Positions 5,261 to 53,581 of a stretch of 64,000 nucleotides of DNA are shown here, one piece after another (the stretch's first letter is position 1; each line of letters starts with the position of its first letter). Location of the stretch: NCBI GenBank assembly GCA_000002445.1, contig CH464491.1:3712001-3776000 (forward strand), read 5' to 3'. The stretch comes from Trypanosoma brucei. Taxonomy: Eukaryota. The position numbers and the translations under genes were made by a program. The notes under the pieces were generated by a model. That model saw nothing but the letters and a program-made list of their open reading frames with translations, was not told the DNA's origin and did no database searches.

Positions 5261-5525
5261 GAGAAAAAGAAAAAAAAAAGGTAAATAACAATGAAGCAAC
5301 AGATGAAAACAGAAGCAACAAAATATAGATAAAAAGAAGGAAAAAAGAAAAAGAAAAAAAGGAGAAGAAAAAAAAAAGAGAAAGAACTTTTAGGACAAAA
5401 CATGAAACAAAGCAAAAAAAAAAGAAAAAATGAAAAAAAAAAGAACAAACACACACTAAAAACACGAAAGAAAGGAAAAGGAAAAGGAAAAGAAAAAGAA
5501 AAAATGAAAAAAAAAAGAAAAACAC
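5261..5525 (+). repeat. ~265-nt near-pure polypurine (A>>G) tract
   Basis: Direct reading: gagaaaaagaaaaaaaaaag...gaaaggaaaaggaaaaggaaaagaaaaag...aaaaaaaaagaaaaac, with only scattered C/T. Confidence 0.85.
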
Positions 5526-6082
5526 GTTTGTATTTAATAATGGGGAAATGGAGTCCCTTTCTTTTCATTTCATTTCTTTCCTTCTTTATTCTCTCTCACA
5601 TAGATGGACAGTACGAGATATGCATTCACAGCAAACCAAAAAAATAAATAAATAAATAAAACAACCACTAATGATAATAATAACAGCGACAGCTAAATAT
5701 ATTAGTTTATGTTGCTTTTTTTCTTTTTTCTTTTTTCTTTTTTGTTTTTAACACTTTCACTCACTCTTTCACTTTTCCTCTTGTGTTATATATTTTTACA
5801 TTTTTATATTTTGAAATTTTTTTTTTTAAAAAATGCGCGGGCCCCCCCTTTTATTAAAGTTCCACCCCCCATTTCCCTTTCCACTGGCCTTCTTTTTTTT
5901 TTTTTATCTTTTTTTTTTAAAGGAGGAAAAAAAAGCAACAACAGCAACGACAAAAAGAGAGAAGTGAAGGAATGAAAATGAAAATGAAATAAATGGAGGT
6001 GCGTGTGTTGGGGGTTTGGGGGAGGGAAAATGAAATTTCAGTTTTTGGGCCCGTGCTTCACCTCAAACAAAAATAAAAAATA

Positions 6083-6135
6083 AAAAAGAATAATAATAAT
6101 AATAACAACAACAACTATTATTATTACTGTTAAAA
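6083..6135. repeat. Compound trinucleotide repeat (AAT)5(AAC)4 followed by (TTA)n, with inverted-repeat character
   Basis: Direct reading: aataataataataataacaacaacaactattattattactgtt. (AAT)n and (TTA)n are reverse complements on the same strand, so a hairpin or cruciform could form. Confidence 0.7.
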
Positions 6136-9100
6136 AAAAGGAGATTTTTTTTCTTTTTTGGAGAGATGGAAGGAAGGGAAAATATTTTTGTGTTTGATGT
6201 TTGTGGGTGTGTGCGTTTTGATGTTCTTATGTCGTTTTTTTTGTTTTTTTGTTTTATTTTGTTCCCCTTTTGTATACTTATTTATGTAATGGAAGTGGAG
6301 AGGAAAAGAATGAGGAGAGAGGTGAATAAAATAAAGATAATAAAAAAAATAAAAGTAATAACACAACGTTATATCAAATGCAATGGAAGAGAGAAACAAG
6401 AGGAAGGGGGAAAAAATGAAAAAAAAAAAGGAAACACACATTTTTTGAACATGCACTTGAACGCTTGAATGAATAAGCGGATGTATGAATACAAATTAAA
6501 GAAAAAAAACAGGTGGAGTATATGAAAAATATGAATGGAGAAAATGAAAGACATGTTGAATTCGTTGAATTGCATTTGGTTGAAATGAAATGAAAAGAGA
6601 AGAAAAGAAAAGATGTACGTATGAATGAATGGATGATTGAAAGCATTACATTGACGAAAGAAAGAAAAGAGAGAAAAGTATACGAGAAAAAACACACATA
6701 CATACACATGAGTACATATATATATTTTTATACATTAGTATATGTTTATATAAATGTGTATGTATCAAACAAACAAACAAAAGAAAGTAAATATGTGATG
6801 GAGAGGCAGAACAAATTGAAGGAAATATTGCGAATGTTTCAGCAGAGAATAAAAACTGGAAAACAAAAAGAAAAAGGAAAAAGGAAAAAGAAAGAAAGAG
6901 AGGGAACGGAACAGCAATAGCACCCATACACACATACACAAACAGAAAAAAAAAAAAGAACAAAAGAAAAACAAAGGCAGAAACAAGAGCGATTAACAGA
7001 AACATTTTTTTTTAAAAAAAAGAGAAAGAAAGAAAGAAGGAAAGAGAAAGAAAATTTAAGTTGAAATTTTTATTTCTTTTCAACTTAAAACGTTTGTGGT
7101 GACGGCTGTGAAGGAAAGTAATAATAATGAGATGGATGATGGAGGGGAGCCCAACGTGGAGATGAAAAGAGCGTTTTATTTTGTTTTAATTTTTCCTTGA
7201 ACACTGAAGGGGGAGGGAAGCTTCTTTTTTTTTTTTCACTTAAAAAAAAAAAATTAAAACTCTGCGAGAGCAGAGAAGAGGGGAGGTGTGGAGATCTTCT
7301 TTTTTTTCTTTTTATCTTTAAATAAGTATCAATTAGATAATGGAGGGACGAGTTTATTAATATAAATTCTGTAGAAGGATACAGAACGACAAACTAATTG
7401 AAATATGAAAGGAAAAAAAAATGAAAATAATAACAATAATAATAATATTAAGGTAGGAGAAAGTCAGTTATTTACAAATTAATCAAACGTCTCACATGCA
7501 CCTCACACATTGAAAGGAAGGAAAGTAAATAGATCAATTAATTAATTAATTCAAAGGCCGATGGAAGTGAAAGGAGTGAAAGAAAAAGAAAAATGAAATA
7601 AAATAACAAAGACAGAAAAAAGAAAAAGACCAAACAAAAGAAGTGGTGTTGCGTATATTTGTACCGAATGGGAAGCCAATGGCGCAAGGCGGTGAGTTGA
7701 AGGGGACTTTTTTTTTTTGTGGAAGTTCCACCTTTTGCTCTTGCTTATTTTTTTTTTTTAAAAAAGAATTTAAATGCTTTTATTTTTCTTTTTTCTTTTT
7801 CTTCTTCTTTTTCGTTTTGTCACGCTGATATTATCAACTTCACCGTCCGTTTCGCTATTTTTGTTTTGTCTTCCTTCACTTCCTTTCCGTCAAAACGTTA
7901 AGCGGCAAAGCGAAAACAAAAAAAAGGTGTGGGGATGGGAGTGGGAAAAAAAAAATGGAAAATTTTCGTGAGAGTTTTTTTTTTTGTGGGAGAATTATAA
8001 TATTTGGTGGAAATTTTCTTTTTTCTTTTTGTTTTTTTTTAATTTTGTAAGTTGAACGAAACAAAATATATATATTTCTATGGATGAAAATGCGCATACA
8101 AAAGTGCATCGTAATTTTGAAAATATGAGGGATAATAAAAAAGGATTAAAAAAAAAAGAGAAGAGAAGCGTAGGGAATAGCTACTTTTCTTTTCCTTTTT
8201 TATTTTATTTTTCGTTGTAACATTAAACTATTTGAAGAAACTAAAGCGATGGGAGGGGAATAAATAATAATAATAATAATGATAAGAGAGAAAGAGATAT
8301 GGAGGAATAGATAAAAGATAAATTTTGCATTTTATGCGTATGTGTGAAGGAGATGGGAGAGGTGTGAAATATAAATTTATAAATAAAGGGAAATGGACCA
8401 AAAGGAGAGAGAGGGGTTGGAACAGAGGAGGAGGAGGAGGAGGAAAAAAAAAAGAAAGACAGGAAGAATAAAAATACAATTAAGAGGAAAACCTGAAGGA
8501 TAGCAAAAAATATATCAACAAAGAAACAAAAAAAAACAAAAAAAATAAAATGCTTGGTTGCATGACATAATATGAACATGCAATACTTTGATGGATTTTT
8601 CTTTTTCTTTTTTTTTTCTTTGGAGGGAGAGGTGTATGGGAGTGGGGTTTGCCTATCTTTTTGTTTAGTTTTGTACGCCATTCCTTTTTATTTTTATTTT
8701 GTTATTTACTTATATTCATTTATATTGTTGTATTTTTCCATTTGTACGCCATATGCACGTGTGAGATACGCGCTCACATTTTTGGCTCCCACTTGTTAAT
8801 TTCGTTCTTGTTTTTTTTTGTTTGTGTGTGTGGCTCCTTTTCCGCCCTCTTTTCTTTTCTTTCCCTTTTTTTTTGTTTTTTGCATTTGTATTTGCATTTG
8901 TGTGACTCATGCTGCTGCTTTGAATATCACATTTTTTTTTTTGTGAATCTGTAGAGTCGAAGACGGTGAGATGATGATATCAAAGAAAAAAAAAGAAAAG
9001 GGAAAACAAAAAAAATGTTAATGAAAAAAATGTATTGAAAAAAAAAGAGAAATACAAAAAAGGCACAAATGGAAATTAAGTCACGGAGGAAGTGGCTGTG

Positions 9101-11801
9101 TTAAGTTTTGTTTTCCTTTTGGCTCTTATAAATATATGTTTGCATTATATTGTGCCTTTTTTGTATTTCTTTTTTTTTTTTGTTAGGGAACTGCTTTTTA
9201 TTTTCCTTATTTTGGAGAGTCTCTGGAAAGAAAAAAAAACAATCGAAATAGGTGAATAGCGGAAATCGACAGTGCATGAAAAAAGAAAAAATGAAAAAAA
9301 AAGGAAAATGAGATTCATTTGAGGAAATATTTCGAAAAGAAAAGATTTGGTACATTACGGCTTCTCATTTGTGTTATGTTTTGAAGTTGATGAAAGCACA
9401 GACATGTAAGTGTGTGCTTGAAGATGTATATATTTATATATTTATATATGAATGGAGGATTTTTTTTTTCCAAGAGAAAAATCATTATTGTGAAGGTCAC
9501 GCACCGCTTCCTTTTCTTGTATATATTTGTATTGAAGAAAAAGAAAATGGAAATGGAAATCCATACGGTTGCTTATAATATAAATATGGACGACAGGACA
9601 GAAGATATAACATTGATATGAAGGAGGGAGAAAGAGAAAAAGAAAAAAAGAAAGAGAAAGGAATGTGATATTATTTTATCATATGGTACACAATGGTGAA
9701 ATGCATTGTCGTCCGCTTCTTCTTTCTTTCTTTTTTTTAAAAAAAAACTGTTTGTTTGATTTCTAATTTTATTCCTTAATGTGAAGCGATGCCACAGGCC
9801 TCGTTTTTTTCTTTTTCTTTTTCTCCTTGTTTTTTCGTGCTTTTTAACTTTCGCTACTCTTTCATTGCTTCTGTTGCTGCTGTCGTCAATATCATACTCG
9901 CTTTTTTTTTTCAAATTAATTCTCTTCCGCTACGGTGGGGCGGGCGGTGCCGCGTATCCCCTTCAACTTTCCAACATTTTAAGCGGTTCCTTCAAAATAT
10001 ATTTTTAAAAAATGAAAAAAATGAAAAAAAAATCAAGAGAAAACAGAAATGGAAATGTGAGAGAAGGGGGAGGGGAAAAAAAAAAAGAAGAAAAGGCACC
10101 ACCACGCTTTTGGATATCCGCACATGACTGATGTGCGTTTCTTTTTTTTTTTTTGCTGTGATAGGTTTATTATTATTATTAATATTATTAATATTACCAT
10201 CTTTTTTTTTTTTTAAAGAAAAAACTTTTTCGCTCTTCGCTCCTTTGAATAATATGCTAGCGGGAAGCGAAATATGTCCATTGTTCCTTTTGTTTCTTGC
10301 TTCTGTACGTGTTTTCTTTCCCCCCTCTTTTTTATTGCTTTGCTTCAGTAGGAAAATTAGTGGAGGTTGAATATATATTTCAGTTCGGAAGAAGAGGAGG
10401 AAATAAAATATGAAATGAAATAAAAAAAAATGAAATGAAAATTAAATTAAATTTGAGCAGAGAGAGGCTCCAAGGGAAGTAAATAAAATTAAGAAAACAA
10501 CAACAACAACAAAGAATGAATGATTTAATTAATTAACATAAATGAATAGGAGAGGAGTCAGGTGAGAAGATGAGAAGGAAGGGTAAAAGATTTGAATAAA
10601 TCGGAGAGATTTATCCGTTTGGTTGTTTTTGGAGAAGCGAAACTTTAAACTCTTTTCTTTCCTGATTTGTTTTTTTCTCCTGTACATTGTTTTCTATATA
10701 TATATAAATATATATATATGTATTCTTTATGTATGTATGCATTTATGTATTTGCTTCATCTTCTGCAGGCCCATCCATCCATTCATCCATCCTAAAATGA
10801 AAGTAATATATAAATATTGCAAACAACAAAAGGAAAATAATTTTATATAATTTTTTTTTTTCGTGTGGGGGTGTATGCAGATGAGATTTTATATTGCGTT
10901 TTGGTGCTCAATCAACACCATCACAGCTGGTGGAGAGTTTTTTTGTTAGAAGAAAAAAAAAGAAAGCAAAAAAGAGAAGAAAAGGATAATAATAAAAAAA
11001 AAGAGTGTTTTGGGGGAAATGGAGAGAATTAAAAAATAAGAAGAAATAATACCAGTGAGTTGCATGGGATTGTGGTACATAAATTATTCCGTAGCGATAT
11101 TTCTTCTTTTTTTTCTTTTTTACATTTTAATTGAAGGGCTGCCGCACAGACGCCTTCCTTTTATGCCTTTGGACTACAATAATTTATGGAGTTTCACTTT
11201 ACTTTTTTCTTTTGGGTTTTTTTGTTTTGTTTTCGGTGGAAACAATCCGTTGTTATAATTATAAATAAGTGAGTGTGAACAGGAGGTGTTATTTTATTAA
11301 TTTTCTCATTACTGTTGTTGTAAACGTTTATTACTGTTTTCTGTTTTGCATCGCTTGGGTGCTTGTGTGTGGTTTATTTGTATTTGTGTCGGAAGCATAT
11401 AAATATAAGTTTTTTTTTAAAAAAAAGAATAAATTTATTTGTATTTTGTTACTGTTTTTTTTTTCCCCTTTGCTTCCGCTGTTGTTGTTATTGCTGTTGT
11501 TCGGTTTTACATCCCTATGGCACGACGTTAAGCAAAATTTTTATTTTTCGATTCAAACGATTCTTCAGACGATTTCTTCGTATGCTTCTTCCATTTTCCC
11601 TAATCGCTTTTTCATGTCTGTTTTTGTTCGTTTTTTTTTTTGTACTTCACTGATTGCTCACTACTTCCGCTTCCCTCTTCCCTCTTTTCTCTTCTCCATT
11701 ACTTTTTATTTTTATTATTTTATTGTTATTATCAATATTATTATTATTATTACTGCTCGCATATTGCAGGGGTTTGAGCGAGGAGAAAAGGAGGAAAATA
11801 G

Positions 11802-11860
11802 TATATATATATATATATATATATAATTTATATAATATATATAATATATTTATATATTTT
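11802..11860. repeat. (AT)n / (TATAA)-type dinucleotide microsatellite
   Basis: Direct reading: gtatatatatatatatatatatataatttatataatatatataatatatttatatatt. Confidence 0.85.
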
Positions 11861-12702
11861 TCAGAGTGGTTGTGCACTTTAGGGACATCGTCTCGTTTTC
11901 GTATCTCCTCCCCACACACAAAAAGAAAAATTATGCAAATTTACGTCGCTGCTGTTAACTTCCTTTTGTTGTTTTTTTTTCTTATATTCATTCCTTATTT
12001 CATTTAAATTATATTGTAACCGTCTTACATCATTATTAGTGTCGTCATTACTATTATTATTATTATTACCGTTGAGTTGTTGTTGTTGTTGTTGTTGTTC
12101 TTTGTGTGTTTATTTATCTATGAAATGTTACTGTTACTATTACCTGATGTTCGTTGATGCCGTCTCTGTTTTTTTTCTTCTGTTTCTTATGTTTTATTTT
12201 CTTCTTTTTTTCCCCCTTTTTTTTTCCTCCTCCCCGCCATTACCCGTTGATTTGTTATTTCCGGCTCCTCCAACCTGCCGTCAACAACTATTTCTCTCTC
12301 TTTTTTCTCTCTCTCTTTTTTTTTGATTTATTATTTCGTTCACTGCCATCTTTTCTTTACCTTTTTAGTTTTTTTTTTGTTTTCCATTCCGTTACTTTGT
12401 GTATTTGATGCCGCTGCCGCTTTTGGAGGAAGGACAAATAACCCAAGTGGTGTGATGATTATCATCACAAAAAGTAATAGTAATATCAATATTTGTTTTT
12501 TTGTTGTTATTATTAATAATTAAGAGAAAAAAGTTATCATTTTTTTTTCTTGGTTTTTGATATTGAGTGGTATGGGAAAGCTGAATATAGAAATATATAT
12601 CTCGAAAGCGAAGAGTCGAAACGGTACATGAAACTTAAGATCATTTTCTTCTTTTTTTTAATTTGTTTTTTACTTTTTTCCTTCTTCTTTCACATATACA
12701 CA

Positions 12703-12708
12703 CATATA

Positions 12709-12739
<31 letters not shown>

Positions 12740-12740
12740 T
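12703..12740. repeat. (AT)n microsatellite flanked by (CA) units
   Basis: Direct reading: cacatatatatatatatatatatatacatatatatatatt. Confidence 0.85.
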
Positions 12741-15700
12741 GTGTAAGTGTATTTTTATGTATGTATGTGTGTAACCCTTCTATAAGGGCTCGGAGGAAAA
12801 AAAAGTAAAAGATAAAATAAAATAAAATGAAAAGAAATGCAATGGAATGGAATGAAATGAAATGGAAAGAAGTAAATTAAATGAGTGGAGGAAAATTTAT
12901 AAAGTTGATTACTTTGGTTTTTTTATATTTATTTATCGTTTGGTACGTGTGCGTGCATGCGTGTGAGGTGTGCTGTCCCAGAACATATCATATCATATTA
13001 TATTATAATATAATAAAATATATCTTTGCGTATCTTTTTTTTTTTTTGCACACAGGTATATATAAATATATAAATAAATAATAAATAAATAATAATAATA
13101 ATATATATATATATTTGGCATTTTCCCTGAAGGAAATGCTTTTATTATGTCAGAAGGAAGGGGGAAAACAAAAAAAAAATAATTTCATATGGACAACAAC
13201 AACAGCAACAAAACTTTTCTTTTAAAATGTCTGCTGAAAGCGAGGTGTTTGAATGTTTTTTTGTTTTTTCTTTAATTTTTACCTTCTTTCCGTTTCTTTT
13301 TATTCAAAGGGTTCCTCTTCATATACGGACGTAATATTATATATTATATCAAAATATTAACATGTTGTCCGGACCCTTGTGCGAGTGTGTTTTATTCATT
13401 TATTTTGTTTTATTTTGTTTTTAAAAATATATAATTCATGCATGGTGGCAGTTCCACCACGCTGAGCGATATTGGACAAACAAACATCGAAAGTGAAAAA
13501 TATTAATAAAAATAGTAATAATAATGATAATAGTGGTGATGAAGGAAATAAGAACAAAAAAAAGGTAAATAAGTGGAAAGTAAGAAGAAAAAGAAGTTGC
13601 AACTCAGAAAAATTATTAGAAATTTGAAAAAAAAATAAAGGAAGGTAAAGCAGCTGAACTTCCGTGATCCTTCCGCTGGATCATTTTTTTTTTTTAATCC
13701 TTCTTTTCTTTTCTTTTGTGCTTGCGCTTGCTTCCCTTTCTTTTCTCTGTTTCCCCCTTATTTTTGTTAAAATTTGTGTTAGCCACGGACCACGTCAGGG
13801 AATATCACAAAAAGAGAAAACAAAACAAAAAAATGAAATGAAATGATATGAAGTAAAAAATAAATACAGAAATAAATATAGTTAAACCCAAACATATTCA
13901 TATGCCTACAGCCTACTGTCAGGCGGGTCTGAAAGGAAAATGAGAAATGAATGTTTTCACTTTAAATTCTAATATTTACTGCACATTTTCTTTTTTGTCT
14001 GTCCTTTTTTTTCTTTATCCCCCTCTTCTCCTCTACCCTTCTTAAAATTCATTTTCCCCCGTGCACTTATTTGGCAAATATTACCATTACCATCACCATT
14101 ACAACTTCCACCTCTTCCTTTTTGCATCATTTGTTCCCACTTTTTTTCCCCCTCTTTTCTATTTTTCGTGTATTTGCCTTTCCCTTTGTCATTACTCTTC
14201 TTTTTTTCTTACTTTTTCTTTTTTTACTTTTTTTCCTTAATATTAAATATCATTTCTTATGCGCACAACCATTTCTTCGTGCTTCTTTTTTTTTTTGTTC
14301 CCCCATTTCCCCCTCCTTTTCCGCCTAAATATGCATTTACTTCGTGTTCCGCTGATGTATTTACTTTTTGTCTTAAGGTGAGACATGAGAGGACGTGAGA
14401 TAAAATGAAAAGGGGACGAAAAATACTGAAGGAATTTTATCGAATGATCGCCGATTATTATTACTATTATTACTACTACTATTATTATTATTATTACTAC
14501 TGTTTTTGTTATTTTTCATGTTGGCGCCGTCGTTTCGTCTTGGTTTCTTCACAGTGCATTTTTATTTTTGTCTCTTTGTTGTTTGGGTCGTTTTGCTCTT
14601 TTTTTTTTCTCTTTTTTTTTTTAAAAAAAAGGGGGGGAGGAGCAACCACTTCGGAATACCCGCGTATTGTTTTTTTTTCATTTAATCAGGAAGCGATTTT
14701 AAGGGAAAAGAATAGCGGAGTGAGGGGGAAAGAAAGCAAAAAAAAAAAGAACAAAAAAAGGAGGAAGAAAGAAAGTCAGCATAAGGTGAAGAAATGGGAG
14801 AGAAATGTAGTAAATTTTTTTTTAAAAAAAGAAAAGGTGTGCGCATAGGAAGTAATACGAGGGTGGAGGGAGGACCGAGTTTTTACTTACTTTTTTTTTT
14901 TTTACTTGTTGTTGTCGCTTACATGTGTTTCAGCAAAATAAATGTGTGGGGCAATGTATTTGCCATGTTTGGTGTTGTTTTCTTTTTTAATGGTTCGTGT
15001 TGTATTGTGTGAGTTCCTTTTTCTGTTTCGGATGTTGTTACGCTGATGGCTAGTTTTGTTGTTACACTGGCACTGAATAGCTCGCTATGTTATAACACTT
15101 ACATATCAATCAACATTTCCTTTATCTTACGTTGTTATATGGACATTAATTTTTGTAAGAGTTTTTTGTTGTAATCCCCCCCCTATTTCCTACATATTAT
15201 TATACAAGAGGCTTCCCTTCCTTTGCCACTGTTTTCTTTTCTTTTCTTTCTTCTTCTTCATGGTCTCGTCTGGATGACTTTCCATTTTGTTTGTTTTTCA
15301 TGTGTCTTGTGTGTTTCCTGCACGTCTACTTGTTAACATTATTCAGATATTGTTATTGTCATTATCATCACTTTCTTTCCTTTTCTTTTCCTCTTTTTTT
15401 AAAAAAATCTCTCTGACTGTTGGATTTTGTCCTCGTCGACTCACAGTGCTGACAAGAAAGTAAAAAAAAAGGAAAAAAAACATATATGCGCGTATATGCA
15501 TGTAAAGGTTGGATTTCTCCTGTACTTTCATTTATTCATGGATAATATGGATAATGTGGATAAATGGTTCTTGTTGATTTATTAATTCTACGTTTTTATC
15601 CTTACTTTTATCATTTTCTTCCCCCTCTCTTTCTCTTCCTCTCTGTGTCTGTTTATGTATCATTTTCAATAAAGATTTTGCGGCCTAGTCGAACTACCTT

Positions 15701-15993
15701 AAATTTGATCCTCATATCACCCGTTTCTATTCTCATTGTTATTGTTATCATTTTGAATGTTTTAAATTTGCGTGCTGCATTATTATTATTATTATTATTT
15801 GAATCGCAGCGAGTGAGTAATTCATTGAACTTAATCGAGGTATTTTAGCAAGGAAGGAAGGGGGAAAAGCAAAAAAAAAAACAAAAGAAGAAAACTACAT
15901 AAATTAACCGACCTACTGGAGATCGCAAAAAGGGACTTCACTTTGTTTTGTTTTCACTCTCCAGAAAGCAAAACATAACCAAAGTGGTGGTTT

Positions 15994-16013
15994 AATATTT
16001 TTTTTCTTTCAAG
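15994..16013 (+). promoter_or_regulatory. Polypyrimidine tract plus AG, the putative trans-splice acceptor for the downstream UEV/CUE gene
   Basis: taatattttttttctttcAAGg lies ~115 nt upstream of the first ATG (16130). This matches the kinetoplastid polyY-AG signal architecture. Confidence 0.5.
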
Positions 16014-16129
16014 GATATACACAAAAATAAGCCAAATTAGTGGAGGCGCTACAGTTAAGTTTTAGGGCCCAGTCTATACATATATATTTCTCTCTAGGTA
16101 CAGTTTCTCCTTCTGTTTCTTCTGAGAAA

Positions 16130-43564: not shown

Positions 43565-46500
43565 ATGGAAGATATTCTCGACTTCAGCAAGCCCGTCGAT
43601 GTGCAGCGTTTCGACCAGGTAGTGCAATACCTCTCAACAGGCTCACCACAAGAGATCGTGAGGGCGCAGGAGGTTCTTACCGCATTCAAGGAGAGACCCG
43701 ACTCCTTTTTACGCGTAGGAGACCTTCTCACCAAATCGGTGAACCTCACGACACGTTTTTTTGCACTTCAGGTTCTGGAGGACGCGATTCTACACCGATG
43801 GAACACATTCACTGCGGAACAGTGTCAGGAAATTCGTAACTTTGTTGTTAACATGATTGTAGGTGAATGCGTGAGCTTCAATCAAATTCGTAGTAGGAGG
43901 GCTCTTCTTATGAAGATGAATAGTGCGCTTGTGTCAATAGCGAAGCGTGAGTGGCCCGTTCGTTGGCCGACCTTCATAAAGGACGTGTGCAGTAGTGCTG
44001 GGCCAGATGAACCTCTTGTAGAAAACAACCTGAACATTCTCCGCATGGTGGGCGAGGAGATATTTGAATTTAGCGAGAAAACTTTAACGACTCGATGGTT
44101 GAAACGAAAGAAGGAGGCACTGCAAAGCGACTTTCAGGCAATTCTTCAATTGTGTCTTTCGATTCTATCCACTAGTGACGAGGCGCTTCTCAAAACCAAT
44201 CTGGAGTGCCTGGAGAAATATCTTTCCTGGGTAGAACCGGCGTCCGTGTTTAACGAGGAATTACTGAAGTATCTTGCGGGACTAATCGCACGGAAGTCTG
44301 CCGTATCGCGCTGCGCGGTGCGTTGTCTTACAGTTGCGTGCTCCGTGGAGACAGATCACGGCTCAGTTGGGGACGCGCAAGCGCAGGTGATGGTTCGTGT
44401 GTTTCGCACAATCCTCGATAATATTATGAACTTACTTCCCACGAATCACTCTTCTGTTGAAGCGCGTATCGTCCAGTTTTCCAACATGGAAGGGAGTGTG
44501 GATGCAGGCTTTGTTGGCGATCTCAATCTTTTGTTGGTTGCGTTTTTGAAGCACTATACGAGAAATATTATGTACGACGATCTCTTGTTGATATCTGCCA
44601 ACCAATTGATCGTGGGAATGAGTCATATTAACGACAAGGAGCTATTCAAATCCTGTGTTGACTACTGGTGGTGGCTTGGTGAAAAGATGGTGCGGTCCGC
44701 ATCACCTACACCGCTACACCGGAAGCTGGCACTTGTACTCAGCAATGTTCGCTTTACTCTCATCAAGAAAATGGCAAGACCGGAGGAAGTCATTATTGTA
44801 GTCGAAGACGGTGAGGTGCGCAGGGTGCACATGAAGGATGTGGAGGAACTACAACTCTACAAATTAATGCGGGAGACGCTTGTTTTTTTAACATACCTCG
44901 ATCCTCAAGATATGCAGGCGATTATGACTAAAATCGTTATGAAGCTTGAAGACCTTAGCGAATGGAGTTGGCACAACTGCAACACATTATCATGGGCAGT
45001 CGGGGCGATATCTGTGGCCCTGACTGAGGAACAAGAATCTTCACTATTTGTAGTTATTGTACGTGGCCTGCTAGATCTTTGTAGCAAGCTACAAGGAAAG
45101 GAAAACCGTGCCGTTGTTGCGAGTGGTATCATGTTTGTTGTTGGGCAGTACCCCCGTTTCCTGCGTGCTCATCAGCCCTTTTTCCGCGCAGTGGTGAAGA
45201 AGGTAATTGAATTCATGTGCGACTTATTCCCTGGTGTGCAGGAAATGGCTGTGGATACTCTTTTGAAGGTGGCCTCGCAGGTACCAGATCAGTTTGTTTG
45301 TGTCAAGAACAATGGGATTTCCCTCGCTGAGGAAACGGCGAAGCGGTGGACTGAAATAACGTCTTTGTTAAAACCCCAACATATGCACACATGTTTTGTT
45401 GCAGCTGGTTGGATGGTGAAGGGAGAGAAGCCAGAGCGGCAGCCGAGTCTGTTAGGCATGTTTCTCCAAGATGCGAACGACAGTTTTAGGATTATTGTGG
45501 AGCGAGCAGCCTCTAAAGGTCCGGCCTTTGGGGAAGACTTTTCTGGTATGGGGGAGTTAATACACATTTTACGTGTCTTTAGCAGCATTGCGTCATCTTG
45601 TGGAACATCGTTTGTGAATGAGATGGGGATTATAATTTACGACCTTCAAGGACTCTATCGTACATTCTTCTCCGCCCAAACTGCCCTAGTTGCGGACCAT
45701 GGAACAGATGCCATGGAGAGGCAGGAGGCACGGTATTTAAGGCTAGCGAAGCGGGAGATCTTGCGAATTTTCGAGTGCTTTGTTGACAATACGGAAGAAT
45801 GTGACTTTGTGGCAACAAATTGCATGCCGAGTATTCTGACAACTGTTCTTGAGGACTACCGTGACTCGCTTCCCATAGTGAAGGAGGCAGGAGCCCTAGC
45901 TCTTGTGACGGCGTGTGTCAACAAGTTGGGCACGCGGTTGGCCGGGGATTGTGCTGCCATTTTGGACCACACGTTTGATACAACCATATCGATGATCTGC
46001 GCAAACGCTGAGGATTTTCCCGAGTTTCGCGTGAATCTTTTCAAACTGCTACACGCACTGAATACTCGCTGTTTTTCCAATTTCTTGAGCTACGCCTCCA
46101 CTAAGGGGGACGTTATAAACGGTATGCTGTGGGTAATCAAACATACAGATTTTGCTATAATGGAGACGGGGTTGAAGACTTTAGATGCTTTCCTTGAGAA
46201 TGTCTCCCGGTCAGAGTTACTTCAACCCTTCTACGATGCCTTTATGCAGCAAATATTTGTCGAGGTTTTGGTGTCCGCTATGGATTCGCTTCATGCCGCA
46301 GGATTCGAACTGCATTGTAGCATCCTCATCAAACTCTTCACTGTGTCTAGCATGTTTCCCGTAGATTTGCCAAAGCTCGGCCGAAACGATATTGAGAGCT
46401 TTCTTTGTGAGAACCTTTCAACCATTGCCACACTCACACCTGTCCTTATTAAGCAGTTTATTGCTGGAGCGTATGAAAAGTATGGAGACCCTGTCGAATT

Positions 46501-46666
46501 CAGGCGGAGCTTTGCAGATTTCCTCATAGAAATGCAGGTTTGGGGTGCTGAGGAGGAAAACAGACTGCAACAAGAGGAAGAACAACGCAGACGGGAGGAA
46601 GATATTCCGGGATTTGCTGCCCTTTCCGTGAAGGGGCCGCCACCAACACCTTCTTTTTATCCCTGA
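43565..46666 (+). CDS. XPO1: Exportin-1 (CRM1) nuclear export receptor
   Basis: 1033 aa. Collinear with CRM1: WPTFIKDVCS, MARPEEVIIVVEDGEVRRVHMKD, LYKLMRETLVFLTYLD, EWSWHNCNTLSWAVGAIS, LLDLCSKLQGKENRAVVASGIMFVVGQYPRFLRAH. This last segment contains the Cys equivalent to the leptomycin-B-reactive Cys of human CRM1. Confidence 0.95.
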   Translation: MEDILDFSKPVDVQRFDQVVQYLSTGSPQEIVRAQEVLTAFKERPDSFLRVGDLLTKSVNLTTRFFALQVLEDAILHRWNTFTAEQCQEIRNFVVNMIVGECVSFNQIRSRRALLMKMNSALVSIAKREWPVRWPTFIKDVCSSAGPDEPLVENNLNILRMVGEEIFEFSEKTLTTRWLKRKKEALQSDFQAILQLCLSILSTSDEALLKTNLECLEKYLSWVEPASVFNEELLKYLAGLIARKSAVSRCAVRCLTVACSVETDHGSVGDAQAQVMVRVFRTILDNIMNLLPTNHSSVEARIVQFSNMEGSVDAGFVGDLNLLLVAFLKHYTRNIMYDDLLLISANQLIVGMSHINDKELFKSCVDYWWWLGEKMVRSASPTPLHRKLALVLSNVRFTLIKKMARPEEVIIVVEDGEVRRVHMKDVEELQLYKLMRETLVFLTYLDPQDMQAIMTKIVMKLEDLSEWSWHNCNTLSWAVGAISVALTEEQESSLFVVIVRGLLDLCSKLQGKENRAVVASGIMFVVGQYPRFLRAHQPFFRAVVKKVIEFMCDLFPGVQEMAVDTLLKVASQVPDQFVCVKNNGISLAEETAKRWTEITSLLKPQHMHTCFVAAGWMVKGEKPERQPSLLGMFLQDANDSFRIIVERAASKGPAFGEDFSGMGELIHILRVFSSIASSCGTSFVNEMGIIIYDLQGLYRTFFSAQTALVADHGTDAMERQEARYLRLAKREILRIFECFVDNTEECDFVATNCMPSILTTVLEDYRDSLPIVKEAGALALVTACVNKLGTRLAGDCAAILDHTFDTTISMICANAEDFPEFRVNLFKLLHALNTRCFSNFLSYASTKGDVINGMLWVIKHTDFAIMETGLKTLDAFLENVSRSELLQPFYDAFMQQIFVEVLVSAMDSLHAAGFELHCSILIKLFTVSSMFPVDLPKLGRNDIESFLCENLSTIATLTPVLIKQFIAGAYEKYGDPVEFRRSFADFLIEMQVWGAEEENRLQQEEEQRRREEDIPGFAALSVKGPPPTPSFYP

Positions 46667-47510: not shown

Positions 47511-48551
47511 ATGACAACCGCCCTACGAGATGAGTGTTCCCCCTTACAAATGTATTCCGAACTTAACCCTCCAGTGGCAATTATGGCGGCTGTACCAGCA
47601 GCGGATATGCAACCTGCGGAAACTGATAACAAACCACGGCAGAAGTCACCGTCATCACACATTCTCGCTTCACAACTAGCATCTGCCGTCAGCACTACTA
47701 TGTTTTACCCAATGGATACGCTGCGCATTCGGTACATGTCACAAGACGGCACCATTCAGCGACAGCACAATGGACAGACGTACCGGTCTATTTACAGAGC
47801 TGTGGGTGTGATATGGAAGGAGGAGGGATTGCGTGCTCTCTTTCGTGGATGTCACGTTGCGGTATTGGGGGCTGTTGTAGCGTGGGGCGTGTACATGTTC
47901 GTATACCGCAAATTATGCGAGGTTTATAACGTTTCGTCTTTTGCAAGTAGAACTGGGATGTCTGTTGTGGCCAGCGTTACGTCGGCGCTGTTGACGACGC
48001 CTATTTGGCTCCTAAAAACTCGGATGCAGATTGAGTGTAGGGCTATGGGTACCTGTGGGAGCTACAGCGGCTTCTTCAAGGGTTTCCACCACATGCTCGT
48101 AACAACAGGCGTTCGTTCGCTTTGGCGTGGAGCGTCTGCGCAGCTCCTACTCGTTTTGCCCAATTCGCTCGGCTTTCCTATTTACGACTCGCTAAAGGAC
48201 TGCATAAACCAAAACATAATAGGGATTTCCGCAGAATCCTGTAGTTGGGTGCATGGACGCGACCTAACCGTAATAGAGGCGTGCCTTTGCTCAGTCGTCG
48301 CGAAAGTTTTTGTGGTGACCCTCTCTCAGCCATTCACGATGCTGAAGGTCCGACTGCAGGATCAACGCTGGAATCAAGGGGAGGTAAGATACATGACGAT
48401 TAAACAGTCGATTCCGCTCATCATAAGACGAGAGGGTGTGTACGGCTTCACACGAGGGTTAGCTTCATCACTGTTATACTCGGTTCCGCGTGGTGTTGCA
48501 TATTACGTTCTCTACGAGAAGTCTCTGCAGTTCTTCTCCCGCCGCGTCTGA
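47511..48551 (+). CDS. Mitochondrial carrier family (SLC25) protein, paralogue A; MFT/Flx1/Ndt-like subfamily with a P-x-W signature in repeat 2
   Basis: The ORF track start is GTG 47493; the first ATG is 47511. It has three carrier repeats: PMDTLRIRY (Px[DE]xx[KR]), PIWLLKTRMQ (PxWxxK) and PFTMLKVRLQ. The N-terminal third is nearly nucleotide-identical to the downstream paralogue. Confidence 0.85.
   Translation: MTTALRDECSPLQMYSELNPPVAIMAAVPAADMQPAETDNKPRQKSPSSHILASQLASAVSTTMFYPMDTLRIRYMSQDGTIQRQHNGQTYRSIYRAVGVIWKEEGLRALFRGCHVAVLGAVVAWGVYMFVYRKLCEVYNVSSFASRTGMSVVASVTSALLTTPIWLLKTRMQIECRAMGTCGSYSGFFKGFHHMLVTTGVRSLWRGASAQLLLVLPNSLGFPIYDSLKDCINQNIIGISAESCSWVHGRDLTVIEACLCSVVAKVFVVTLSQPFTMLKVRLQDQRWNQGEVRYMTIKQSIPLIIRREGVYGFTRGLASSLLYSVPRGVAYYVLYEKSLQFFSRRV
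47613..47905 (+). repeat. 293-bp near-identical segment (1 mismatch) shared with 49334..49626; a gene-conversion patch between tandem carrier paralogues
   Basis: Direct comparison of cctgcggaaactgataacaaaccacgg...gtacatgttcgtata in both copies. Flanking sequence on both sides diverges. Confidence 0.9.
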
Positions 48552-49267
48552 TTGGCATCCCCTTACATCATTGCCACTGGCTAATGGTCACTCCCTTAGG
48601 TATGTGCCGCTACATCGTCAAGACGCTTTGGTGCTTGTGTAGAAATTGTTACTCCCTACACAGCAACTTCATTAAACTAAGAGAGGCATTAATATTGCTC
48701 ACTTTCGCCTGAGAAGTTGTTTATCATTATTAACTTACTTGTCACTTTTTTCAGTTATCGTGCCCTCTGTTTTCATCTGTACAGTTTTATCAGTGCAGAA
48801 TTCGTTGCATATTTTTCTGTATTTTCCTGTTATCTGAAGTTACTCCCAAGTTGAAGGGAAATGACTTGTGTACTTCCCCTTCCAGCAGAGGAGGATTGCA
48901 TTGGATTGATGGGGGGGAAGGAAGGAATTAAGAGGGCATGTTTGAAGGGGGGAAATTAAAACGTTAAACATGCCATGAGTTGAGTTTGTAGTAGTCCTGC
49001 TGTACGGTACGGAGAGGTGGGGGTGAGGGGATGTGCTACGGTGAACCGCAAGGCAAAAACTAGGTGAGGGAAGGGACCCCTACACTTGATCTTCAGCATC
49101 TTTCCTCTTGCTTTGAAATACGTTGTTTCTGTCGGAAGTTCTGCGGTCTTCACCTCTCTCATCAATGTTCACTTCTATATGCGCTTTTCACTAAGTGTAG
49201 GTGAAAGCCCGGAGGTTAATTTTTTTCCCCGCGGATATTACCCTGCTTGTATAGTTAATCACTTCAG

Positions 49268-50287
49268 ATGGCACAAAGTACTGCTCGTCACGTAATGAAC
49301 ACGCCGCAGTCCCAACAGGGTCAGAACTTAACACCTGCGGAAACTGATAACAAACCACGGCAGAAGTCACCGTCATCACACATTCTCGCTTCACAACTAG
49401 CATCTGCCGTCAGCACTACTATGTTTTACCCAATGGATACGCTGCGCATTCGGTACATGTCACAAGACGGCACCATTCAGCGACAGCACAATGGGCAGAC
49501 GTACCGGTCTATTTACAGAGCTGTGGGTGTGATATGGAAGGAGGAGGGATTGCGTGCTCTCTTTCGTGGATGTCACGTTGCGGTATTGGGGGCTGTTGTA
49601 GCGTGGGGCGTGTACATGTTCGTATATCACGCGCTGTGCGACCTGTACATCCCAACAAGTAACAAAAGAGCGGGGGACGATTTCTTGTTTCGCACTGTTC
49701 TTTCCAGTATTGCCAGTTGCAGTTGCGCAGTCGTGGGAAACCCTATTTGGCTCCTAAAAACTCGGATGCAGATCGAGGAAATCGCCTCACGTGAGGCGGC
49801 AGTGGCTGGAGCTTCTATCTTTCGAAACAGCAAAAATTACACGTCATTCTTTGGTGGGTTAAGATACGCTATTCAAACTGACGGTGTTTTGTCGCTGTGG
49901 CGTGGTGTCTCCGCACAGGTCCTGCTAGGTTTACCGAACGCACTTAACTTTCCCGCTTATGAGGCACTGAAGTCGTTCTGGTTGCAGCGCACTGACCGAG
50001 AAACCCTTTACAGTTATGAGGCGTGCATTTGTTCAACAGCCAGCAAAACTGCGGTTTCGATCATCGGGTATCCCCTACACGTTGTTAAGACAAGAATGCA
50101 AGATCAGAGAAGTCGCCGAGGTGATTTACAATATGTTTCGTTTCTGCAGTCAGCCTGGCTCGTGCTGCAGACCCATGGATTTGCTGGTTTGTACCGTGGC
50201 ATGGTGCCGTCCTTGCTGCACTCAGTCCCACGTCTCGCGCTCACATTCGTTCTGTACGAGAAGTTAATGCAGCAGAATTTTTTTTAG
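49268..50287 (+). CDS. Mitochondrial carrier family (SLC25) protein, paralogue B (tandem duplicate of 47511..48551)
   Basis: ATG at 49268. The motifs PMDTLRIRY, PIWLLKTRMQ and PLHVVKTRMQ are present. The protein is identical to paralogue A over ~97 aa (PAETDNKPRQ...VYMFVY) but has a different N-terminus and a diverged C-terminal two-thirds. Confidence 0.85.
   Translation: MAQSTARHVMNTPQSQQGQNLTPAETDNKPRQKSPSSHILASQLASAVSTTMFYPMDTLRIRYMSQDGTIQRQHNGQTYRSIYRAVGVIWKEEGLRALFRGCHVAVLGAVVAWGVYMFVYHALCDLYIPTSNKRAGDDFLFRTVLSSIASCSCAVVGNPIWLLKTRMQIEEIASREAAVAGASIFRNSKNYTSFFGGLRYAIQTDGVLSLWRGVSAQVLLGLPNALNFPAYEALKSFWLQRTDRETLYSYEACICSTASKTAVSIIGYPLHVVKTRMQDQRSRRGDLQYVSFLQSAWLVLQTHGFAGLYRGMVPSLLHSVPRLALTFVLYEKLMQQNFF
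49334..49626 (+). repeat. Second copy of the 293-bp conversion patch (see 47613..47905)
   Basis: Same as above; offset 1721 bp. Confidence 0.9.
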
Positions 50288-50770
50288 ATTGGGGCATATT
50301 ATTTAATGCATACGAGGTTAAAATGTTTTGATCCTTTTCTTTTTGCACATTCGTGAACATTCATTTCACTTGTCGGAGGGTATTTTGAGCGCGCTGAAGG
50401 TGCATCGTGTGCTAACATGTAGGGGCATGTAAGCGCGGGCGTGTGCCTGCGTTGTAATGCAATGGTGACTTACCATTTGTGGTGTTGCATGTGTTTTTAT
50501 TGTAAGGTTCTGTCTAATTTGTGAAGGAAATATTGGTCTTTAAGTCAGAGATTTTCATTCGTTGGTTTGTCACACCAATTTGGTGATACCTCATCCAGGC
50601 ACAAGTTTCAGTGCCCTCATTCGATTTTTTTTTTTAACACTTATTCAGCCTTGGTGAATAGCAACTTGTAAGTAGCAGTGACGGGGGGAAGACAACGAAA
50701 ATCAGAAAAGAAAAAAAAACACAGTAAAGAAGCGAACGACGTCTTTAACTTTACTATAGCTGTAGCGGTT

Positions 50771-53581
50771 ATGTCCAAGGAGGCTCCACATCGCTTTCTA
50801 CTGGAGACGCGGTCTCAGCAGCTCCATCGTCTTGAAGCTATACGACGTCGTCGTGAATTGTTGGAGCGTGAATCGCAAAAACCTGTTCAGATGCGATTCG
50901 GCATTGGGGGAAGGGGGCCTTCATGGTCTCCACCACCACGGATTCAATCGCCTGTGGTGACAACGGTGAACGGGGTCCAGAAAAGGCCCGCTGAAACGCG
51001 AAAGGGCTTCTCATCTTGTTCCCGATGTCCACGCAGCTGCGAGCCACGGAAGGCTACCCATGTTCCACTTGTCCGCTCACGATCGGCACCTCACATGAGG
51101 CTTTCTCAATGCTTTGCAACTCGTTCCACTTCAAACCGCCGTACTTCATTAGTGCCGCCGTTCGGATCGCTCTGCAATTTGCAACAAAAGAAAGATACGC
51201 CTCCGATCAAGAGGATGTTGAAGCGACAACGTTCGCGTACAGTGTCTACTTCACCGTCAACTTCACTTACATCAAGATTCCGCAGGCGTACACCTCTGGC
51301 GAGCGCCCGCAACAAGGAGAAGATGACACCATGGAACAACTTTCCTAATACATCGAGATCGGCGCAAATATTAACTCCGCCATTGGGTCCAAAACATGGG
51401 AAAAGAGTTTCCGCCCCGCGCGAAAGGTCACCATCTCCCCTACCGTCCTCTACCCAAACCACTGCGATAAACGGGACGACACACGACGAACAACGGCAGC
51501 CTGCAGTGACGCTGGGTTCAGAAACAGTTTCATCCTCGCCTACCAACCGGTTTCCTCTTCCGAGGTCTCGGAGTGTCTCCAACGCCGAACCTAAGGAAAT
51601 GGTGAATCAGCATGTGGGATCATCCCCATTGAGGTGTGTCTCGGACGAAAATATGGAAACGGTCACCGCATTTCGCGTAAGCGAGTTCCCCACACCGCGC
51701 ACCCCTAAACTTCGTGAGAGTCTGGCCGTTTCGCTGTCCCCAGCAACTTCTCAGGGCGTGTCCATTAAGCAAGAGTTGGTGGCGGAGACTCGCATCAGCA
51801 CTGACAGTTCTCCTCCGGTCGTGAAAGAGGAGGCAACCTGCAACCCCTGTGATGGATTGTTACTGCAGTCGTCTACATGTCAGTCGGTTTTTGTGGGCAG
51901 TTCTTCCGTTCTTACCGGTGGTTTATGTGAAGTTGATATTCATCTCAATGAGGAATCAGATGCGCCCCCACCCTGTGAAATTGAAACCAGTAGGGACAAT
52001 AAGGAGACCAGGGTGAGTGCCGCGGCTTCTCCTGCTGGTGAAAGTGATATCGTTTCAATGTCTCCATCGTCACCAGGATGCAAAGCTGCAGCTGCTTGCA
52101 GACCCTCCGCCATGACGTCGTATACGTTCGATTGCAGCCCCACCACAAGTGAATTCGACGGAACCGAAATTGAGAGGAATTCTCACCGACAGCTCATGTT
52201 TGATATGGAAGAAAGCCAGAGCTCTACTGTGGCAGTTGAGGATAAAAAGAATGCGGATGGTCAGCTGCACCAACACGTTAGTGGTGAAGACGAAGAGTTG
52301 GAAAACGACAGTGACCTAAATAATCGGGAAGAAGAGTTGTGTACTCCAAGGGATAACCGCGGCGAGTGGCTACCTGATACTTTGACGCACGGACTCGATG
52401 CCTCTGCAGAGTCGGAGAAACCACATGAATGTGTGAATGCCCTCTGCACACCCGTGGATCAAATACTGTATTCATCACCGTTGTGTGAAATGGTGTCGCC
52501 ACGGCCGCAAACACCCTTGTTGCAAGTGAGAATGGAGCATAAGCTCACCATGCTCAACACTGCAGAGCGGGAAGATGAGAATTCACGCGGGAGTTTACTG
52601 TTGGTTACCGGTGAAAGTCCCATTCCTCACACACCTGTTCTACAGGAACCGCACACACCGCCTCCAACAGAGGGAGTCCCGCTATTTATTTCTAATACAT
52701 CGAATCTCCCTCGTCCTGTGACACTAATATCGGCACTTCAGTCTCCAATGAGTGCCCGTCGATTGGTCCGTCCAGTGGCTGAATCTCCTATCGGAGAATG
52801 TGCAGTGTGGAATGGGGGAAAGTGGTCTCCCCCGATGCGCACAGACTTAAATAAGGAGCCAACGGTCCAACCGCGGGAAGTAGTTGATCTAGAGCGACGA
52901 TACCTGGAGGCAGGCTCAGGACTACAAGGGGAATCGGTACCTTCGAGTTCCTCATCGCCCTGCTCCGGCTCTCGCTTTAAAAACAAAAAACTGCCTACTG
53001 ATTTGCTAATGGTTTCACATATACTTGAGGCAAGCGAAGAGGCTCACCAGCCAATAACGTCTGAGACATCGTGTTGTACACCGTCACATTCTCAGGGCAA
53101 TGATCAGGCGTCAGGACAGCTGTCAGGAAGTTCATCCACTGCACAGACCGCGGCTTCCCAACCGCGGAAGCATTATTACGAAAAAACTCACTGGGAGCAA
53201 CACCAACTGGGGACCACAGCAAGCAACATTGCGAAGGAACATCGTCGGAGTGAGAAGGTAGTAGGTAAAGTTGAGCTATGCGCCTCAAAGGTTTCAGAGG
53301 CTGTTGCTGCCTCCCTGAATTTCACAGCAGGTGAGAAAAGGGAAAGGGAAGCCAGTTCTGATACTGACCGGACTTCACAATCCCCACACATTTTGAAGGC
53401 GAATGCAGCTCCCAGCCGAGACTTACGACAAGCAGGGGCCTCTCCTCAAGGGTCATCACAATCCTCCACAGGTGACGATCCAATTGGAAGCACTACGCAA
53501 ACGAAACTTGTGTCAGAGAAACGCCACGCAAAGAAACACAGACGCCGGCGCGTTCGTCGCTTCAACAAGGGAGGAAAGTAG
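50771..53581 (+). CDS. Large S/P/T-rich, probably intrinsically disordered protein with basic N- and C-terminal tails; no recognisable domain
   Basis: The ORF track start is GTG 50678; the first ATG is 50771 (MSKEAPHRF...). It carries dozens of SP/TP dipeptides, and the C-terminus reads KRHAKKHRRRRVRRFNKGGK (NLS-like). Confidence 0.65.
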   Translation: MSKEAPHRFLLETRSQQLHRLEAIRRRRELLERESQKPVQMRFGIGGRGPSWSPPPRIQSPVVTTVNGVQKRPAETRKGFSSCSRCPRSCEPRKATHVPLVRSRSAPHMRLSQCFATRSTSNRRTSLVPPFGSLCNLQQKKDTPPIKRMLKRQRSRTVSTSPSTSLTSRFRRRTPLASARNKEKMTPWNNFPNTSRSAQILTPPLGPKHGKRVSAPRERSPSPLPSSTQTTAINGTTHDEQRQPAVTLGSETVSSSPTNRFPLPRSRSVSNAEPKEMVNQHVGSSPLRCVSDENMETVTAFRVSEFPTPRTPKLRESLAVSLSPATSQGVSIKQELVAETRISTDSSPPVVKEEATCNPCDGLLLQSSTCQSVFVGSSSVLTGGLCEVDIHLNEESDAPPPCEIETSRDNKETRVSAAASPAGESDIVSMSPSSPGCKAAAACRPSAMTSYTFDCSPTTSEFDGTEIERNSHRQLMFDMEESQSSTVAVEDKKNADGQLHQHVSGEDEELENDSDLNNREEELCTPRDNRGEWLPDTLTHGLDASAESEKPHECVNALCTPVDQILYSSPLCEMVSPRPQTPLLQVRMEHKLTMLNTAEREDENSRGSLLLVTGESPIPHTPVLQEPHTPPPTEGVPLFISNTSNLPRPVTLISALQSPMSARRLVRPVAESPIGECAVWNGGKWSPPMRTDLNKEPTVQPREVVDLERRYLEAGSGLQGESVPSSSSSPCSGSRFKNKKLPTDLLMVSHILEASEEAHQPITSETSCCTPSHSQGNDQASGQLSGSSSTAQTAASQPRKHYYEKTHWEQHQLGTTASNIAKEHRRSEKVVGKVELCASKVSEAVAASLNFTAGEKREREASSDTDRTSQSPHILKANAAPSRDLRQAGASPQGSSQSSTGDDPIGSTTQTKLVSEKRHAKKHRRRRVRRFNKGGK

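Follow-up and report, generated by a model that had tools for sequence, protein, structure and literature searches.

The odd signature motifs of two tandem Trypanosoma brucei mitochondrial carriers are inherited traits of a Trp-group subfamily probably related to the folate and FAD carriers

Mitochondrial carriers are built from three tandem repeats of approximately 100 amino acids each. A tryptophan at the acidic position of the second signature motif is the hallmark of the NAD+, FAD, folate and pyrimidine-nucleotide carriers and likewise marks the CoA and peroxisomal carriers (PMC8231866, PMC9104175); a cation-pi role has been proposed for this residue (PMC9104175; PMC8231866). In the FAD/folate carriers the [DE] position of the third motif is occupied by [QNAT] according to a review, in which an incomplete Px[DE]xx[KR] set is regarded as a known and tolerated deviation in SLC25 and no ground for exclusion (PMC9104175). 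Both the Trp hallmark and the non-acidic third motif of the folate/FAD carriers are already known. In T. brucei, the carrier MCP2 (Tb927.11.14360) has been reported to be mitochondrial and was picked up by two RNAi screens, one with methotrexate and one with raltitrexed, in which its RNAi fragments were enriched (PMC5114424); in the published tree described in that paper's citation of Colasante 2009, TbMCP2 lies on a branch with human SLC25A32.

The window, that is, the whole 64,000-nt stretch of DNA analysed here, derives from chromosome 11 of T. brucei brucei TREU927 and carries two intact carrier ORFs, arranged in tandem on the + strand:

47511-48551, + strand: carrier gene A, the 'A-type' paralogue, 346 aa, identical to TREU927 XP_829491.1
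49268-50287, + strand: carrier gene B, the 'B-type' paralogue, 339 aa, identical to TREU927 XP_829492.1

The deposited TREU927 protein of 346 aa starts with the ATG at position 47511 and is identical to the window translation of A, and both genes are TREU927 carrier genes already present in the annotation. The pair lies just downstream of an ORF encoding CRM1/exportin 1, which in T. brucei is Tb927.11.14340 (PMC11361705). From this gene order, the single basis of the identification, B is most likely Tb927.11.14360 (MCP2), and by the same gene order A would be Tb927.11.14350. A pseudogene or a sequencing artefact was rejected for both, as the ORFs are intact, match the deposited proteins exactly and are conserved throughout the Euglenozoa.

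The signature motifs reported in the initial annotation (PMDTLR in repeat 1 and PIWLLK in repeat 2 of both proteins; PFTMLK or PLHVVK in repeat 3) were all confirmed, at the following positions:

47709-47726, + strand: A repeat 1, PMDTLR, aa 67-72, canonical (D69, R72)
48000-48017, + strand: A repeat 2, PIWLLK, aa 164-169, W166 at the acidic position, K169
48330-48347, + strand: A repeat 3, PFTMLK, aa 274-279, T276 at the acidic position, K279
49430-49447, + strand: B repeat 1, PMDTLR, aa 55-60, canonical (D57, R60)
49742-49759, + strand: B repeat 2, PIWLLK, aa 159-164, W161 at the acidic position, K164
50072-50089, + strand: B repeat 3, PLHVVK, aa 269-274, H271 at the acidic position, K274

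The register was checked by phmmer alignment to yeast ADP/ATP carrier 2 (PDB 4c9g), in which YPMDTLRIRYM pairs with YPLDTVRRRMM in repeat 1, NPIWLLKTRMQ with SPIERVKLLIQ in repeat 2, the W standing opposite the E of PIERVK, and YPLHVVKTRMQ with YSLDYARTRLA in repeat 3. The W and the H therefore occupy exactly the [DE] position and repeat 3 is in register; a mis-registration of the third repeat was ruled out by this alignment.

Membership of SLC25 is clear from the three tandem PF00153 (Mito_carr) repeats found in each protein; the E-values are 3.8e-50 (A) and 8.8e-52 (B), and the scores of 168 and 173 bits lie far above the cut-off of 22.3 bits. The AlphaFold2 model of B (pLDDT 84.9, pTM 0.81) has the six-helix carrier fold, and among PDB entries it matches UCP1 and ADP/ATP carriers best, at TM-scores of 0.71-0.81 when normalised to the target. 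The complete matrix network of three Px[DE]xx[KR] motifs is absent from both proteins, which are canonical at repeat 1 only.

With W166 in A and W161 in B, both proteins carry the Trp that the initial annotation had taken as a clade hallmark, as indeed already published, and both fall inside a 166-sequence Trp-group clade, at 90% bootstrap in a neighbour-joining tree with a small outgroup sample of ADP/ATP and six other canonical carriers. Within the same tree the euglenozoan clade is recovered at 98% bootstrap, and A and B belong to this Euglenozoa-wide branch of the Trp group of SLC25. Among characterised carriers, those closest to the pair are probably the FAD/folate carriers SLC25A32/MFT and Flx1. 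Outside the clade the nearest relatives are mostly of the D/W/Q type, that is, with these residues at the acidic positions of the three motifs (62/93 matches at 150-215 bits), and a profile of the clade scores the best D/W/Q relative at 203 bits versus 190 for the best D/W/E relative, a modest preference in which the D/W/E relatives are classed by motif and not by database name; relatives P0043-P0050 are presumably 'Rim2-like'. Motif 1 is followed by 'RF..S/Q-DG' and motif 3 by 'RLQD[QH]' both in the clade and in the named folate carriers; the D/W/E sequences have neither of these flanking signatures.

The same pattern of residues runs through the whole clade. Across 42 kinetoplastid homologues, every sequence that includes the repeat-1 segment has PxD there, and repeat 2 is PxW, except for PxF in four, whilst an acid at the [DE] position of repeat 3 was found in none of the 42. 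An exhaustive search with the clade profile gave the same D / W (or F) / non-acidic pattern in its 58 best matches (>300 bits), none of which has D or E at the repeat-3 position. The named vertebrate SLC25A32 proteins, 120 of the 120 examined, read PxD / PxW / PYQ, with PYQV[VI]R as third motif, and the named vertebrate folate carrier motifs are PLDLVK / P[IL]WVTK / PYQVVR. The Thr of A is among the [QNAT] listed for FAD/folate carriers; the His of B is likewise non-acidic, yet outside that list. The loss of the repeat-3 acid, which the initial annotation had considered an additional and unusual step, is thus the rule in folate carriers, and the odd signatures of A and B are inherited subfamily traits and not a new gating mechanism.

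Which residue occupies the site is another matter. A-type orthologues have T, V or M there, B-type orthologues H, Y, L or N, and sequences of the Leishmania group L, V, I, M or A; clade-wide, eleven different residues occur between flanking P, K, R, Q and D that are invariant or nearly so. At a conservation of at least 80%, A-type and B-type sequences can be told apart at no more than four alignment positions; the repeat-3 acidic site is not among these four, nor is any recognised contact point. Because the residue varies within both orthologue groups, the Thr of A and the His of B look like drift at a site freed from its charge constraint, as judged from the aligned sequences, and no marker of substrate class.

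The arrangement of conserved residues suggests what such carriers might do. Q168, Q278, Y231, Y330 and E331 are invariant and K235 nearly so. Reading conserved positions against the carrier model, we infer gate energetics, cation-pi contact, transport mode and substrate of A and B as follows. In the cytoplasmic-open state the matrix gate would be held by just one true salt bridge, joining the Asp of helix 1 to the Lys of helix 3, together with the proposed cation-pi contact of the helix-3 Trp with the helix-5 Lys and a pair of glutamine braces (in B, Q168 and Q278), and helix 5 would have no link to helix 1. The cytoplasmic gate would likewise contain at most one canonical salt bridge; neither charged position is present in helix 2, helix 4 carries Y-[DE]-x-x-K and helix 6 a Y-E without a base. 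Weak gates are tied by the carrier field to net, uniport-like import of cofactors, and for this reason the most likely job of A and B would be the mitochondrial import of folate and/or flavin cofactors. Overall, we think it probable that the pair are folate-type carriers of the Trp group, with inherited signatures, a most likely role in the import of folate and/or flavin cofactors, and a repeat-3 residue that is unconstrained.

The duplication which gave rise to A and B is ancient, and both paralogues have been kept across the trypanosomatids. Repeat 1 of the two genes has been homogenised by gene conversion, whilst repeats 2-3 diverge and are only 46% identical. The conversion tracts are:

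47612-47911, + strand: gene-conversion tract, A copy, 300 nt, covers repeat 1, 98% identical to 49333-49632
49333-49632, + strand: gene-conversion tract, B copy, 98% identical to 47612-47911

Given the age of the duplication and the low identity of repeats 2-3, a functional difference between A and B is plausible on sequence grounds.

In the predicted binding site the pair departs from the folate carriers. At contact point III in helix 6, an Arg is present in ADP/ATP carriers as well as in the named folate carriers (LIRVTP in the named MFTs), but is absent from A and B:

48477-48491, + strand: A helix 6, 'YSVPR', Y323 at the contact-point-III position, R327 four residues later
50219-50233, + strand: B helix 6, 'HSVPR', H318 at the contact-point-III position, R322 four residues later

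P321 and R322 of B are invariant in the 42 kinetoplastid homologues, and throughout the euglenozoan clade H, Y, Q, L or V stands at contact point III, followed four residues on by the invariant Arg. The clade further keeps SAQ...LPN in helix 4, versus VPG...SHG in folate carriers, and has a conserved GCH in helix 2. With the contact-point-III Arg gone and LPN in place of SHG, the binding site is not simply that of MFT. Since the Arg has moved by one helical turn, and in view of GCH, SAQ/LPN and at most one salt bridge per gate, the MCP2 clade may form a subfamily of cofactor carriers in its own right, as yet uncharacterised, in which the binding site has been remodelled and two ancient paralogues may have divided two cofactors, such as folate and FAD, a suggestion that we make only tentatively.

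It is similarly possible, if rather unlikely, that the euglenozoan carriers have switched to a substrate outside those of the known Trp-group carriers and that A and B divide two cofactors, e.g., folate and FAD. The exchange of the contact-point-III Arg for H, Y, Q or L, the changes in helices 4 and 2 and an ancient duplication homogenised in repeat 1 only would all be in keeping with such a shift. However, folate is favoured by the published tree as well as by the RNAi phenotype under antifolates, and PMP34-like peroxisomal carriers also do without this Arg, yet are cofactor carriers. Less probable still is that the pair are carriers of NAD+ or pyrimidine nucleotides, of the Ndt1p/Rim2p/SLC25A33-36 type, rather than of folate/FAD. 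The repeat-2 Trp is common to those carriers and A/B, the deep nodes of the Trp group have bootstrap values of 0-30% in the neighbour-joining tree, so that folate/FAD-type and Ndt/Rim2-type sisters are not separated, and non-kinetoplastid matches from a word-based search include fungal proteins with PIWLIK / PHEVVR. However, the motif-3 acid is kept in Ndt1p (E300; PMC9104175) and in all PHE-type relatives and occurs in 0/58 of the best profile matches, the sequences flanking the motifs fit the named folate carriers and not the D/W/E sequences, and the antifolate RNAi phenotype again favours folate. That Thr in A and His in B are adaptive, paralogue-specific changes altering gating or substrate class, as proposed in the initial annotation, is very improbable: although old paralogues have been retained across trypanosomatids with repeats 2-3 just 46% identical, and a His could in principle confer a pH-sensitive gate, the residue is unconserved within either orthologue group, takes eleven forms between near-invariant flanks and is not one of the four positions that separate A-type from B-type.

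For carrier biology the preferred reading, folate-type Trp-group carriers, changes little: motif deviations of this kind are textbook knowledge for the folate/FAD group, and the genes are in the annotation and have in part been studied. In trypanosomes the locus matters as MCP2 is tied to antifolate susceptibility. The near-identical 300-nt tract in the tandem paralogue means that published RNAi data may not tell the two genes apart, and the MCP2 hit could stem from the knock-down of both. In addition, the predicted binding site differs from that of human SLC25A32 in a key arginine, which bears on both the assignment of substrate and selective inhibition.

Compared with known systems, Ndt1p/Ndt2p, Rim2p and SLC25A33/36 share with the pair the second-motif Trp and the broad Trp group, but the Ndt1p/Rim2p type keeps the acid of motif 3 (E300 of Ndt1p; PHE-type) where the pair has T or H, and lacks only the salt bridge between helices 3 and 5, whereas two of three are missing in the pair. 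SLC25A17/PMP34, a peroxisomal carrier of CoA/FAD/NAD+, is similar in its PxD / PxW / PxQ motifs and has a non-basic Q at the helix-6 contact point, comparable to the H/Y of the pair; however, its motif 2 ends in N (PLWVAN) rather than K, and it stands apart from the trypanosome clade in the neighbour-joining tree. The helix-6 Arg of MFT (LIRVTP) is H/Y in the pair, with an Arg four residues later (HSVPR), SHG in helix 4 of MFT corresponds to LPN, and helix 2 of the pair, unlike that of MFT, is without the basic residue of the cytoplasmic network; the third-motif residue, Q in 120/120 named vertebrate MFTs, varies within the trypanosome clade and is for the most part hydrophobic there. SLC25A32/MFT and Flx1p nonetheless have, like A and B, three repeats with PxD / PxW and a non-acidic third motif, and in SLC25A32/MFT, as in the pair, the basic motif positions remain Lys or Arg and 'RF..S-DG' follows motif 1 and 'RLQDQ' motif 3.

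Two mitochondrial carriers, A and B, are encoded in tandem and share 57% overall protein identity. The gene directly upstream anchors the locus on Trypanosoma brucei chromosome 11.

43565-46666, CRM1/exportin 1 ORF, directly upstream of A
47511-48551, + strand, carrier A ORF (346 aa; three Pfam Mito_carr repeats, 168 bits)
49268-50287, + strand, carrier B ORF (339 aa; three Pfam Mito_carr repeats, 173 bits)

The translations of A and B are identical to XP_829491.1 and XP_829492.1 of Trypanosoma brucei brucei TREU927, respectively, and the window is therefore from chromosome 11 of that strain. The CRM1/exportin 1 gene is Tb927.11.14340 (PMC11361705); by inference from gene order and the consecutive protein accessions, we assign Tb927.11.14350 to A and Tb927.11.14360 to B. 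The latter is MCP2, which genome-wide RNAi screening picked up for resistance to methotrexate as well as to raltitrexed, and a Myc-tagged version localised to the mitochondrion (PMC5114424). In a 2009 carrier inventory, as that paper reports, MCP2 shares a branch with human SLC25A32. Both genes are already annotated and one is partly characterised. Directly downstream of B is a 967-aa ORF (50678-53581), Ser/Pro-rich and seemingly of low complexity, for which Pfam gave no match. Elsewhere, the otherwise continuous + strand gene array is interrupted at 2503-16039 (~13.5 kb), where there is no ORF of at least 200 aa and only short A/T-rich microrepeats are found; GC content is 28-31% over ~4-14 kb but 43-53% beyond 16 kb, and the GC skew is strongly positive between 6 and 10 kb. 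No Rfam family matched anywhere in the 64-kb window.

The initial annotation had read the Px[DE]xx[KR] signatures of the three repeats as PMDTLR, PIWLLK and either PFTMLK (A) or PLHVVK (B), and these motifs were confirmed in just that form. The register of the third repeat, which it had considered open to error, is right: when the sequence is aligned to that of yeast ADP/ATP carrier 2, whose structure is solved, the H of PLHVVK pairs with the D of SLDYAR, just as PMDTLR pairs with PLDTVR and the W of PIWLLK with the E of PIERVK. AlphaFold2 models B with the six-helix carrier fold (pLDDT 84.9, pTM 0.81), the closest solved structures being UCP1 and ADP/ATP carriers. Across 42 kinetoplastid homologues, PxD is present in repeat 1 wherever that segment exists, repeat 2 carries PxW (PxF in 4/42), and none has D or E in repeat 3. 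When 1.84 billion representative proteins were searched exhaustively with a profile, 58 scored above 300 bits, and all of them combine D, then W (50) or F (8), then a non-acidic residue. The motif deviations are properties of the lineage, not noise.

In a neighbour-joining tree (Kimura distances, 176 sequences, 302 columns, 200 bootstraps), a 90% bootstrap divides the carriers with Trp in motif 2 from a set of ADP/ATP carriers plus six other canonical carriers, which agrees with the proposed membership of the MFT/Flx1/Ndt/Rim2 group. The kinetoplastid homologues all fall, together with their closest relatives, into a 65-sequence clade (98%), the euglenozoan MCP2 group. Branching order within the Trp group has bootstraps of 0-30%, and a specific sisterhood with SLC25A32 would draw on motif characters, score ranking and the published tree rather than on the neighbour-joining tree.

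The different repeat-3 substitutions, T in A and H in B, had been taken as a possible sign of altered gating or distinct substrates. A paralogue-defining adaptation is unlikely, as the residue varies even among orthologues: in A-type proteins it is T in T. brucei, T. grayi, T. theileri and T. melophagium, V in T. congolense and M in the T. cruzi group, while in B-type proteins it is H in T. brucei and T. congolense, Y in the T. cruzi group and T. vivax, and L or N in others. In the clade as a whole, the residue at this once acidic site is L, V, I, M, A, F, Y, H, T, N or Q, with the adjacent P, K, R, Q and D invariant or nearly so. There is no conserved signal in T and H themselves, and their difference is most readily explained by drift at a site freed from the charge requirement.

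The paralogues are old. In a second tree restricted to repeats 2-3 (180 columns, 300 bootstraps), Trypanosoma B-type proteins group at 95%, and the A-type join a second Phytomonas and Leishmania martiniquensis set at 82%, which places the duplication before the split of the Trypanosoma and Leishmania lineages. Repeat 1 is nevertheless nearly the same in both copies:

47612-47911, + strand, homogenised repeat-1 tract of A
49333-49632, + strand, homogenised repeat-1 tract of B (300 nt, 98% DNA identity between the two)

Within species, A and B are 100% identical in repeat 1 in T. brucei, 99% in T. congolense and 82-87% in the T. cruzi and T. theileri groups, whereas repeats 2-3 of those pairs match at 41-48% and repeat-1 orthologues from different species at only 63-81%. 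The same codon is used for 96/98 identical amino acids in the tract, as against 27/78 elsewhere. Such homogenisation in each of these lineages indicates recurrent gene conversion confined to repeat 1. A separate 36-nt island (48000-48035 in A, 49742-49777 in B; 35/36 identical) encodes PIWLLKTRMQIE and has 11/12 codons identical, compared with the 27/78 seen for identical residues in the remaining sequence beyond the tract; this reflects either a patch of micro-conversion or constraint on the nucleotide sequence itself. Only four positions cleanly separate A-type from B-type. That both copies have been kept for so long while diverging only in repeats 2-3 would fit some division of labour. An RNAi fragment spanning the homogenised tract would knock down A and B together, and thus the published MCP2 phenotype may not be paralogue-specific.

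With regard to gating, the matrix side would close in the cytoplasmic-open state through a single salt bridge between D69/D57 (A/B numbering) of helix 1 and K169/K164 of helix 3, a proposed cation-pi contact between W166/W161 and K279/K274, and bracing glutamines in helices 3 and 5 (in B, Q168 and Q278, both invariant among kinetoplastid homologues), leaving helix-1 R72/R60 presumably with no acidic partner. The cytoplasmic network reads Y-R/H-x-x-C in helix 2, Y-[DE]-x-x-K in helix 4 and Y-E-x-x-[LM] in helix 6, residues so sparse that at most one canonical salt bridge can form. In the framework current in the carrier field, weak networks lower the barrier to conformational change in the absence of a counter-substrate, which would suit net cofactor import.

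Compared with known carriers, the motif feature is ordinary and already explained, though a few minor side observations deserve mention. The Trp hallmark had been correctly identified, though it is already published: in motif 2, a "rare tryptophan" takes the place of the first acid in Flx1p, Rim2p, Ndt1p/2p, AtNDT1/2, SLC25A17, PXN and SLC25A33/36 (PMC8231866), and this residue is conserved among carriers of NAD+, pyrimidine nucleotides, FAD/folate and CoA, where it may engage the basic residue of motif 3 in a cation-pi contact (PMC9104175). Loss of the repeat-3 acid, previously called unusual, is the expected state in folate/FAD carriers, which have [QNAT] instead of [DE] (PMC9104175). Among 120 vertebrate proteins retrieved with a human SLC25A32 query (best match 98% identical; most named "mitochondrial folate transporter/carrier" or "solute carrier family 25 member 32"), motif 1 is PLDLVK in 113, motif 2 P[IL]WVTK in 115 and motif 3 PYQV[VI]R in all 120; the loss is therefore normal in genuine folate carriers. 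The closest relatives outside Euglenozoa mostly have D/W/Q at the acidic positions of the three motifs (62/93 matches at 150-215 bits), D/W/E, the Ndt1p pattern, being a minority. Named folate carriers also resemble the trypanosome proteins after motif 1 (IRFAVSDG, trypanosome IRYMSQDG) and share RLQD[QH] after motif 3, both lacking in D/W/E sequences.

The binding site differs, as judged by alignment of the even-numbered helices with contact points that we take to correspond to ADP/ATP carrier residues R79, G182-I183 and R279.

48477-48491, + strand, helix 6 contact site of A (Y323)
50219-50233, + strand, helix 6 contact site of B (H318)

At contact point III, MFT ("LIRVTP") and ADP/ATP carriers ("ILRGVAG") have a helix-6 Arg in place of this Tyr or His, and the rest of the clade has H, Y, Q, L or V; a Pro-Arg pair 3-4 residues further on ("HSVPR"; P321, R322) is kept in 42/42 kinetoplastid sequences and runs through the whole euglenozoan clade. 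In helix 4 the VPG...SHG of folate carriers gives way to a conserved SAQ...LPN, and helix 2 has a conserved GCH, unlike MFT. The site thus appears remodelled relative to SLC25A32, whose substrate would not be simply transferable to the trypanosome carriers.
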